Source: a virus (lineage: Duplodnaviria > Heunggongvirae > Uroviricota > Caudoviricetes). From it: a DNA stretch of 26,413 nucleotides. The stretch lies in IMG/VR virus record IMGVR_UViG_2778261064_000014; one strand, 5' to 3'. Of this stretch, positions 6,001 through 9,000 are shown in pieces. How positions within the stretch are numbered: position 1 is the stretch's first letter; each line of letters opens with the position of its first letter. Made by a program: the position numbers.

Positions 6001-9000
6001 TCCAGTTTCTCACGGAACAGTTTAAAACCGTTCAGCATACGCCAGACCGTGCCGTCCATAATCGCGATATTGATGGTGCCGGAAGCGAAATCGCAGTACG
6101 CATCCAGATCATGCGTCGGATCGAAGGTGTCAGCATTCTGCTGTGACCATTCGCGTCCGCCAGCCTGCGTAATGTTATTGGCGGCAGAACGCCCAAAATC
6201 CACTTCCACCGTTTCAAACTGCTCGCCACTCATGGTGTATTTACCCTGCAGAACGGCACTGACCGCCTGCATTTCTTCCACCTGCACAATCGCCTGCTCT
6301 TCCTGTTTCAGGTTGTCCGTCAGAATACGCAAACGGCGGTAAGCCGGGTCATTAAGGCGGGCCGGATCTTCTCCCGGAAGACGTTCCACTGCCTGCTGAT
6401 AATCAAAGCGGTGTTTTGGTTTTACATAACCAGGACGTAACACACGGGTTTCACCACCACGGCTGCGCAGCACTTTGCCTGACACCACCGGAGACACATA
6501 CGCCGCAACCGGTGTTTTGCCGGTAATTTTATCCAGCATGACTTCCTGAGTATGGAAAGTGATCGTGCGACGAAAGAACAGCTCCAGAAACAGCGCACGA
6601 AATTTCACTTTCTGCTCGGTGTACCCGAGTAACTGACGCGTGGTAAATAACCCCATAATTTATATTCCTTCAGAAACACAAACGGGCCGCATCGCGACCC
6701 GTTTTTCAGTTAATCACTTCACCATCAGGCGTGGCTGATGGCACTTCCCACAAATGCGTTGGCTTTTTTCACCGCATCCACAGAGTCAGGCCAGACCAGC
6801 GACTCAGTGGCAAACGTACCGCTTTTGTAGTACGTCAGCATGGGTTCTGTTCCGGTAAGCGCCAGAGCCAGCACACCCACTGCCGTTCCGGCTTTCTGAC
6901 CATCCCATGCCACCATTTTACCGGTGGTGTCATCCAGCATCAGCGGTGTCAGTGCTGGCGTGGCGGCACTGATACCACTGGTGGCAGTTGCGGTATGCGC
7001 CGGATCGCTTCCGGCAAAAATATGCACATCTGCACGCTTTTCCGTGGTGGTTTTAATCATTTTTCAGTCTCCTGATTTATCTGAATTCCGGATACCGCTT
7101 ACGGCATACTCATCAGCAGGTCTTCCTCCCCGCGCCCGGCAGTTCCGCCACCGGAAACCGCACTGGCAGCATGCTGGGCCATAAAGCGATCAAAAAGTGT
7201 TTCCTGTGACGGTTGCGATGCCGCCGGCACGGCTGCCAGCAGTGTTTTCGCCTGCGCCACCGTCATTCCTGGCTGTTCTGTCAGTGCCTGTGCAAGTTGT
7301 TCGCGCCCTTTCGCCTCCGGTAGTGCCATAATCTGCCCGCCAACACTTACAGAACCCGCAACCGGTGCCGCCGCCAGTAACGTTTTTGCCTGGTCAACGG
7401 TCATTCCCGGCTGTTCAGCCAGTGCCTGTGCCAGTTGTTCACGCCCTTTTGCTTCCGGCAGCGCCATAATCTGATCGCCTGTGCCTGCAGTACTGGCAGC
7501 AGGGGCTGCCGCCAGAAACGCTTTCGCCTGCTCCACCGTCATTCCCGGCTGACCTGCCAGCATCTGCGCCAGCTGTTCACGCCCTTTTGCTTCCGGCAGC
7601 GCCATAATCTGATCACCTGTATTTGCCACACTGGCAGCAGGCACAGCAGCCAGGAAAGCTTTCGCCTGCTCAACCGACATTCCTGGTTGCCCTGCCAGCA
7701 TCTTCGCCAGTTGTTCGCGTCCTTTTGCCTCCTGACAATTCAGGATCTCCATCACGCGCTGATTTTCCTGGGCCACAGCCTCAATGATCGAAACATTCGT
7801 TTGCGACATATTTACCTCTCTATTAATTTCTTTATTTATTGCAGAAACCATCACTTCAACGGCATCTGCAGCATTAATCAGTTGATCAGCCAGGCCTGCA
7901 TCAATCCCTGCCTGACCGTCATAAACGGCAGCCTCGGTATTCATCACCGCCTCTGAACTCAGCCCCGTATAAAGCGCCACCTTGTCGACAAACATCCGGC
8001 GGGCCTCATCAATACGGCGCTGAAAATCTGCACGCACACCTGCCGGCAATGCCTGAATACTGTTGCCGTCAACCTTGTGCTGCCCGGAGTAAATCAGCGT
8101 GATGTCCACCCCTTCCTGTGCCAGTTGTTTCTCGTAACTGGTGTGCGCCATCATCACACCAATCGAACCAATTTTTGCCGTCTGCGTGACCAGCCGACGC
8201 GTACAGGCTGCCGCCAGCAACATGGCGGCTGAACAGGCCATGTCATTACACAGCGCCCACACGGGCTTCTGTTCCCGCAGACGGTAAATCATGTCAGCAC
8301 AGTCAAACGCCCCGGCAGCCTGACCGCCCGGGCTGTCGATATCCAGCAAAATGCCGCGCACATCCGGATCATTCACTGCCATCTGAAGGCGGGCCGTCAG
8401 GCCGTCATAGCCTGTCATGCCGGAGTAAGGCCGCAGGGTACCCAGTTTATGCACCAGCGTGCCGCTCACCGGCAGAATGGCAATGCCATTCTTCACCTGG
8501 TAACTCTTTGCCGGACGCTGACCACCCGCCATATAGTCAGTCACAGCCAGCTGCATACCATCAGCATCAAGCTGAACAGCCTGCTGAGGAACGGCAAGGC
8601 TGCCGGCCCCCATCTCTTTACCCAGCGCGCAAAAGAAAACCCGCGCATAGGCGGGTTCCAGTAAAAGCGGCTCATTAAATGCCATGGCGGCAATATGCGA
8701 TAAATTACGACGCATCGCCTTTTTCTCCCGTTGTCTGTCGGATCTGCTGCTGAAACGTGTCCTTTATCCAGATGGGGCGGGGAAGACCCGCTGCCTGTCG
8801 CTCCTGGCTTTCACGCAGTTGCTGGCGGAAAATCTCCTGATAGTCATCGCCCATCAGGGCCAGCTCTTTCTCGTACGTGCTTAAACCACCTTCAATACGC
8901 ATCACCGCTTCCTGCACTTCCTTAAGGCCATCAATCGCCATGCGACCGGCACCAATCCACTCGGCACGACACCATCCGGAACGGGCCTCCCAGAATGAAA

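Follow-up and report, generated by a model that had tools for sequence, protein, structure and literature searches.

Tandem copies of a conserved Nu3-type module in the prohead protease/scaffold gene of a lambda-type prophage head operon

The 26,413-nucleotide stretch of the IMG/VR virus record IMGVR_UViG_2778261064_000014 (Caudoviricetes), which we refer to in its entirety as the window, carries a gpC-like prohead protease/scaffold gene in which four head-to-tail copies of a 46-residue unit are encoded in strict 138-nucleotide register. By sequence, this array belongs, with its four units, to the same kind as the "Tri box" arrays long annotated in phage 21, and each of its units bears the signature of a module that is widespread, and normally single, in lambda-type scaffolds. 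The units are orthologous by position across strains and are conserved in their protein sequence, which argues that the array is old and selected rather than the product of fresh slippage. With modest confidence, we favor the reading that the repeats are a selectively maintained tandem amplification of the Nu3 core module, resulting in a multivalent scaffold that would dock the gpE-like capsid protein.

Results

Four in-frame repeat units in a gpC-like gene

Tandem Repeats Finder detects one array in this region, at 7246-7732, with a period of 138, 3.5 copies, 81% matches, 0% indels, and a score of 533. The autocorrelation of the coding segment reaches 0.744 at lag 138 and 0.656 at lag 276, compared with a maximum of 0.41 in 500 codon shuffles. 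When unit borders are set by anchoring on the motif EAKGRE, the array resolves into four in-frame 46-residue units at 7207-7758 on the minus strand, within the frame of the 538-residue open reading frame (ORF). The features of this gene are as follows.

7099-8715, minus strand: gpC-like prohead protease/scaffold gene, 538 residues, overlapping the end of the portal gene by 11 nucleotides
7846-8280, minus strand: S49 (SppA-like) peptidase domain, residues 146-290 (Pfam PF01343)
7621-7758, minus strand: repeat unit 1, residues 320-365, the most divergent unit and the nearest to phage 21 Tri1 (82.7 bits against the unit hidden Markov model, HMM)
7483-7620, minus strand: repeat unit 2, residues 366-411
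7345-7482, minus strand: repeat unit 3, residues 412-457
7207-7344, minus strand: repeat unit 4, residues 458-503
7102-7206, minus strand: single-copy C-terminal tail, QETLFDRFMAQH...EEDLLMSMP, with one predicted helix

Pairwise identity between the units is 62-82% in DNA (25-52 differences per 138 nucleotides) and 25-37 of 46 residues in protein, with most differences falling at third codon positions. The N-terminal edge of unit 1 reads RVMEILNCQ, compared with TGDQIMALP in the other units. An earlier note on this DNA had described near-perfect 138-bp repeats at 7216-7735; the period, the frame, the four copies, and the quoted unit consensus are all recovered here, but the degree of identity is well short of near-perfect, and the interval, which lies inside the array, is about 10-20 nucleotides short at either end. 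Beyond the last unit, the sequence pattern of the C-terminal tail is common to the window, phage 21, and lambda.

The 538-residue protein is 100% identical to a product of Escherichia coli 08-00022 (NZ_CP013662.1) annotated as "S49 family peptidase," and the window as a whole is 100% identical to the chromosome of that strain. The Peptidase_S49 model matches at 1.9e-33 (116 bits against a cut-off of 24.9) and PHROG 53, "head maturation protease," at 4.5e-211. Searching solved structures with phmmer recovers SppA (4kwb and 3rst, 1.4e-16), and Ser162 (codon 8232-8230) aligns with the catalytic serine of Bacillus subtilis SppA. Among the neighboring ORFs, Pfam matches identify a portal of the lambda family (8705-10276; 2.7e-96), a decoration protein of the gpD type (2.2e-23), and a major capsid protein of the gpE type (5628-6656; 1.8e-66), and the minus-strand order of Pfam matches (Nu1, GpA, Phage_portal_2, the protease/scaffold gene, HDPD, Phage_cap_E, and Packaging_FI) is that of a lambda-type head operon. 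The S49 domain and these neighbors together identify the gene as a gpC homolog. The repeat region in turn aligns with the Nu3 part of lambda gpC, so that the repeats, as judged by this alignment, fill the C-terminal part that lambda shares with its nested scaffold Nu3, and the C/Nu3-like identity proposed in the earlier note is borne out.

The array is old and its units are individually conserved

Between the window units, the synonymous divergence (dS) is 0.5-1.5 and the ratio of nonsynonymous to synonymous divergence (dN/dS) is 0.13-0.28, a pattern indicating purifying selection on every unit. Across strains, units at the same position are 91% (unit 1), 94% (unit 2), 95% (unit 3), and 93% (unit 4) identical, compared with the 62-82% seen between different units. 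Since the units are orthologous by position, the array is older than the divergence of these prophages, and this positional orthology, combined with the low dN/dS, points to an array that has been retained by selection. Recent slippage, which we considered as an origin, was rejected in view of the low identity between units and the same positional orthology.

Copy number does vary between related prophages, as the earlier note had anticipated. Most relatives encode 538 residues and four units, and Okinawa bovine strains encode 535 residues with a 3-residue linker deletion. In STEC313, with 584 residues and five units, the identity between units 2 and 3 is 96%, so that one of these inner units is a recent duplicate; the same alignment signature suggests five units in STEC307 and STEC308 as well. 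PapRG-04-4 has 492 residues and three units, the second of which is a hybrid of EC11 units 2 and 3 (94% and 93% identical, respectively). Next to both the STEC313 and the PapRG-04-4 arrays, the annotation shows the portal, decoration, and capsid genes to be intact. These variants indicate that units are gained and lost through unequal homologous recombination, mostly involving the inner units, which are the more similar ones. Because the units are only 62-82% identical, replication slippage is unlikely; hence, of the two routes of expansion and contraction suggested in the earlier note, only recombination is retained. Such changes are rare, affecting about 4 of the ~90 E. coli records listed.

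A census of 119 full-length database relatives counts three units in 72, four in 40, five in three, and two in two. The phage 21 lineage spans 2-5 units, its variants in this census including a 551-residue four-unit and a 657-residue five-unit protein, and a two-unit E. coli variant is a Tri1/Tri2 hybrid. Of 5,426 complete E. coli genomes, 106 carry a prophage with the four-unit type, which also occurs in entries from Citrobacter, Salmonella, E. albertii, and E. marmotae; a tblastn search of a phage collection found it in 0 of 50,697 phage genome records. Three database entries (P0280, 610 residues; P0285, 743 residues; and P0321, 721 residues) join the S49 protease/scaffold to other sequence and have aberrant unit counts, and one of them is named "phage baseplate assembly protein V." These are probably gene-call artifacts or else remnants of prophages that were frameshifted or rearranged.

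The unit is a widespread module of lambda-type scaffolds

A profile built from 25 diverse units and searched against 1.84 billion cluster representatives matches 1,880 of them at E<=1e-3 and 214 at E<=1e-10. In the best 150 matches, 137 proteins carry one copy, 10 carry two, and three carry three; there is invariably one tail, at the C-terminus, and a median of ~52 residues follow the last unit. The module lies either near the C-terminus of ~430-530-residue protease fusions or in stand-alone proteins of ~80-230 residues, and in one case it is fused to a ClpP-type protease adjoining Phage_portal_2, HDPD, and Phage_cap_E genes. This census suggests that the unit is a discrete, old, and normally single domain of lambda-type scaffolds.

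The module spans ~40 residues with the signature I..(A/C)..EA.GRE.LA..LA...(G)M(T/S)...A...L.A.P, and the four window units score 75-83 bits against the unit HMM. In the 25-sequence alignment, A9, G11, A16, and L34 are invariant, and all four window units keep them; E8, A9, G11, and E13 are each at least 90% invariant, making the charged loop EAKGRE the most conserved feature. The module is conserved among distant relatives, whereas their tails are mutually unrelated. PHROG 8399 ("head scaffolding protein"), 1999, and 8940 match four stretches of the window protein. Library scans of the same protein returned no Pfam or NCBIfam model for the module; sub-threshold matches to Peptidase_C23, DUF732, and Bac_DNA_binding were dismissed as repeat-driven noise.

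The genomic context of two distant stand-alone module proteins was also compared. In Bradyrhizobium (GCA_040548125.1), a stand-alone 197-residue protein at 6001-6594 carries two Nu3 modules within an element (642-10120) that encodes a tyrosine integrase, DUF6074 genes, a 297-residue protein that matches no family, and a 783-residue tape-measure-like protein. No recognizable portal, terminase, or capsid gene was found in 642-10120, and the element may be satellite-like or degraded, borrowing the scaffold module. Another distant stand-alone module protein sits on a 1.8-kb contig fragment; neither context resolves the partner of the module.

A predicted internal start upstream of the repeats

Lambda-type heads encode the scaffold as a nested, same-frame product, and the window contains a candidate start for it.

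7815-7821, minus strand: Shine-Dalgarno sequence AGAGAGG, 5 nucleotides before an in-frame ATG at 7809-7807 (M303)
7099-7809, minus strand: predicted nested Nu3-like scaffold ORF, 236 residues from M303, in the protease frame

The AGAGAGG duplex with the anti-Shine-Dalgarno sequence is predicted at -7.7 kcal/mol, the strongest among the in-frame starts before or inside the repeats. A Shine-Dalgarno sequence and an ATG occur at the homologous position in 8/8 genes compared (five E. coli relatives, PhiR12_2, phage 21, and lambda), and M303 is homologous to the annotated ribosome-binding site and start of phage 21 gene 6. We therefore infer that initiation may occur at M303 in this prophage, which would give a 236-residue product composed of an 18-residue leader, the four units, and a 35-residue tail. 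The candidate start thus sits 17 codons upstream of unit 1 and not within the repeats, where the earlier note had thought to look for it; in-frame ATGs inside the repeats pair more weakly with the anti-Shine-Dalgarno sequence and are not at the annotated homologous site, and were rejected.

Between the protease domain and this start lies a hinge (7756-7875, minus strand) with a ~100-nucleotide AT-rich patch (GC content 0.35-0.47) encoding ...AINKEINREVNMSQTNVSIIEAV. The patch is 62-80% identical to strain PSJ-22, compared with 97-100% for the rest of the protease domain, and the Okinawa bovine strains carry the window's version of it. It looks like a small mosaic replacement right at the internal start. 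Tandem Repeats Finder also reports a 12-nucleotide repeat in two copies within the patch, at 7817-7840.

Public records differ as to where the nested lambda scaffold starts. In OM418627.1 (lambda h434 imm21), 5035-5736 is annotated as a 233-residue "capsid assembly protein." The AGGAGG-ATG at C codon 309 of lambda would instead give ~131 residues and matches the phage 21 gene 6 site. The annotated gp6 of phi80, at 137 residues, agrees with this shorter scaffold.

The repeats also lie opposite an open frame that the earlier note had regarded as a pseudo-ORF.

7435-7956, plus strand: antisense stop-free frame of 173 codons with a TTG start, from the ORF list

The frame is present, but its length and position differ among relatives, with a break in EC11, and a comparable antisense open frame of 241 codons exists in lambda C. 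An antisense gene was rejected on these grounds; the Ala/Gly/Gln-rich, GC-rich sense frame gives rise to the open frame as a by-product.

Predicted fold of the units

Given a 32-sequence alignment, AlphaFold models each unit as three short helices, of ~6, 8, and 10 residues, and predicts a tail helix at residues 202-213 of the Nu3-like part. The predicted local distance difference test score (pLDDT) is ~75-85 in the units and ~50-60 in the linkers, with a mean of 70, and the predicted template modeling score (pTM) is 0.27. These values suggest folded beads without a fixed mutual arrangement. AlphaFold run on the single sequence arrived at the same secondary structure, with lower confidence. 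Foldseek found no match for the model in the PDB at E<=0.001, which is unsurprising for tiny helical units on a flexible chain. The unit profile, searched against PDB sequences with hmmsearch, retrieved just designed helical repeat proteins and chance matches, and phmmer with the whole protein matched SppA and ClpP structures over the protease domain only.

Discussion

A proposed multivalent scaffold and its candidate partner

In the mechanism we favor, the gene would yield two same-frame products, the 538-residue S49 prohead protease and, from the ATG at 7809, the 236-residue Nu3-like scaffold. Each ~40-residue unit would fold on its own into three short helices bearing the invariant EAKGRE...PGMTV..A...L signature, with a flexible Ala/Pro/Ser/Gly linker of ~8 residues joining successive units. 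Each module would then dock on the inner face of the gpE-like major capsid protein, such that one chain could hold up to four capsid subunits, raising avidity and bridging neighbors during procapsid nucleation, and the protease could be taken into the shell through the contacts of the shared array. Unequal recombination between inner units would alter the copy number, of which at least 3-5 appear to be tolerated. The capsid protein is favored as the partner because the charged EAKGRE loop is the most conserved feature, because a contact between lambda Nu3 and E has been detected, and because tolerance of 3-5 copies would fit avidity for a lattice that offers many equivalent sites. The contacts Nu3-E, Nu3-Nu3, and Nu3-C were all recovered for lambda by yeast two-hybrid (PMC3224144).

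Several considerations weigh against this mechanism. The gpE-like protein is a candidate docking partner of the module, and, by analogy with the scaffolds of other phages, binding to the capsid could fall to the very end of the C-terminal tail instead. Among the phages compared, the head module co-varies as a whole, and natural mosaics therefore do not separate the capsid protein from the portal as the partner; "Lambda_4C10," considered as a portal/capsid mosaic, turned out to have a complete phage-21-type head (99-100% identical) and is uninformative on this point. The P22 coat-binding helix-turn-helix was matched neither in sequence by hhalign nor in structure by Foldseek against the PDB. 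Confidence in the AlphaFold model is only moderate (mean pLDDT 70), and initiation at M303 is predicted from sequence.

One alternative is that the modules act as scaffold-scaffold "stickers" with flexible spacers that cross-link an internal core, with the single C-terminal tail binding the capsid protein. The capsid-binding element lies at the C-terminal end in the scaffolds of P22, phi29, and 80alpha, and the tail of the module proteins is likewise always single and C-terminal, a median of ~52 residues past the last unit. The beads-on-a-string arrangement predicted by AlphaFold would also fit self-association, and a Nu3-Nu3 contact was seen by two-hybrid, with dimerization mentioned in the same paper as a personal communication (PMC3224144). 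However, the most conserved feature is the charged EAKGRE loop rather than a hydrophobic or coiled-coil interface, distant tails are unrelated while the module is conserved, and tandem self-binding units would tend to pair within one chain; we regard this alternative as possible but rather unlikely. Binding to the gpB-like portal, with the modules building a portal-protease-scaffold initiator and additional copies recruiting or orienting the dodecameric portal, strikes us as very improbable. The module does co-occur with Phage_portal_2 in both protease contexts (S49 and ClpP-type). The copy number of scaffold is far above that of portal, however, which counts against it, as does, weakly, the two-module Bradyrhizobium element, which has no recognizable portal but whose capsid gene is likewise unrecognized. 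Lambda genetics indicate that Nu3 is needed for incorporation of B, and C-B contacts have been reported, but the two-hybrid screen recovered no B-Nu3 contact (PMC3224144).

The array might also be a neutral, length-tolerant recombination spacer, with one unit or the tail doing the work. Lambda functions with one unit, variants with 3, 4, and 5 units all lie in intact-looking head modules, and between close strains such as the window and PSJ-22 the repeats are 90-95% identical compared with 97-100% in the flanks. Against this, the residues invariant in the family are kept in every unit at a dN/dS of 0.13-0.28, units keep their positional identity across strains, and arrays of several copies have persisted in two separate lineages and across several genera, such that we consider a neutral spacer quite improbable. 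Tandem repeats are prone to misassembly, and mis-joined copies were considered for this reason only. The chance of such an artifact is negligible, as the units differ by 18-38% in DNA and are individually distinguishable, and the four-unit layout recurs in ~100 complete E. coli genomes as well as in the Citrobacter, Salmonella, E. albertii, and E. marmotae entries.

If the modules do make the scaffold multivalent, then valency could serve as an evolvable dial, in which the number of modules per chain (1-5 among natural lambdoid phages), varied by unequal recombination, sets how many capsid subunits or scaffold chains are bridged and thereby controls the nucleation rate, the fidelity, or the ratio of scaffold to coat in the assembly of T=7 procapsids. 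We offer this as a speculation and consider it unlikely. A sticker-and-spacer design might, in addition, give the scaffold core a condensate-like character.

Other features of the window

The lambda-type head operon (5212-12922, minus strand) is accompanied by P2-type baseplate genes, Baseplate_J and Tail_P2_I, at 1073-2570 (minus strand). This prophage would hence pair a lambda-like head with a contractile-tail baseplate, a combination also present on a metagenomic contig (L010). Between a Q-like antiterminator gene (19561-20115, minus strand) and the terminase genes lie an S8 subtilase-family peptidase (16046-17077, minus strand; Pfam 3.6e-25, with no NCBIfam model reaching its cut-off) and an AraC-family regulator resembling YdeO/GadX (18212-18925, minus strand). 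This is the late-operon position at which lambdoid prophages carry cargo such as stx, and both genes look like prophage cargo.

Comparison with known systems

The closest described counterpart of the window array is in phage 21, whose head operon (GenBank M81255.1) is annotated with three repeat regions in gene 6, which are named "Tri1 box," "Tri box," and "Tri3 box" and described as "function unknown; putative." These boxes translate to exactly three copies of the module. The two phages share the order of portal, protease with nested scaffold, decoration protein, and major capsid protein; genes 5 and 6 of phage 21 are the gpC and Nu3 analogs, the internal ribosome-binding site and ATG are positioned as in the window, and the head proteins are 72-83% identical. 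The arrays themselves differ, in that phage 21 has three irregularly spaced and strongly diverged units sharing 18-20 of 34 core residues, whereas the window has four in strict register. The window units share 23-30 of 34 core residues with each other, 19-27 with Tri1, and 17-20 with Tri2 or Tri3. The closer resemblance of the window units to each other and to Tri1 implies that the four-unit array arose by separate amplification or was homogenized after the two lineages split.

For the window itself, the array is an ordinary and well-explained part of a prophage head operon, and tandem boxes have been known since the phage 21 annotation. What the present analysis adds is a family-wide definition of the module, the detection of selection on each unit, and a natural series of one to five copies. 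The Tri boxes can thus be understood as copies of one autonomous, widely conserved module, each under purifying selection, a domain that annotation pipelines leave unlabeled under "S49 family peptidase." The copy series in turn provides a ready-made allelic series on scaffold valency in capsid assembly. No paper discussing or explaining these repeats was found in the literature searched, which did not include the lambda gpNu3 paper (PMC3247018).

Lambda gpC/Nu3 resembles the window protein in its S49 domain, its shared C-terminal scaffold region, and a similar tail, and its internal start (AGGAGG and ATG, C codon 309) is homologous to the one predicted in the window; the head proteins of the two are 53-65% identical. 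Lambda gpC, however, has a single module copy (RIMGILNCEEAHGREEQARVLAETPGMTVKTARRILAAAP), preceded by a Ser/Thr/Ala/acidic-rich stretch of ~50 residues that the window lacks, having just the 18-residue leader. PhiR12_2 has three module copies.

The resemblance to the P22 scaffold gp8 is one of analogy only, as a comparison of the unit profile with gp8 by hhalign gave a probability of 1%, leading us to reject homology to its coat-binding helix-turn-helix, and Foldseek against the PDB found no fold match. What the two systems have in common is a scaffold that exits the procapsid and contains a small, hairpin-like helical element in which basic residues are conserved. They differ in how valency would arise: P22 gp8 has a single C-terminal coat-binding copy and obtains its valency by oligomerizing, whereas in the window the element is repeated within the chain and followed by a separate tail.

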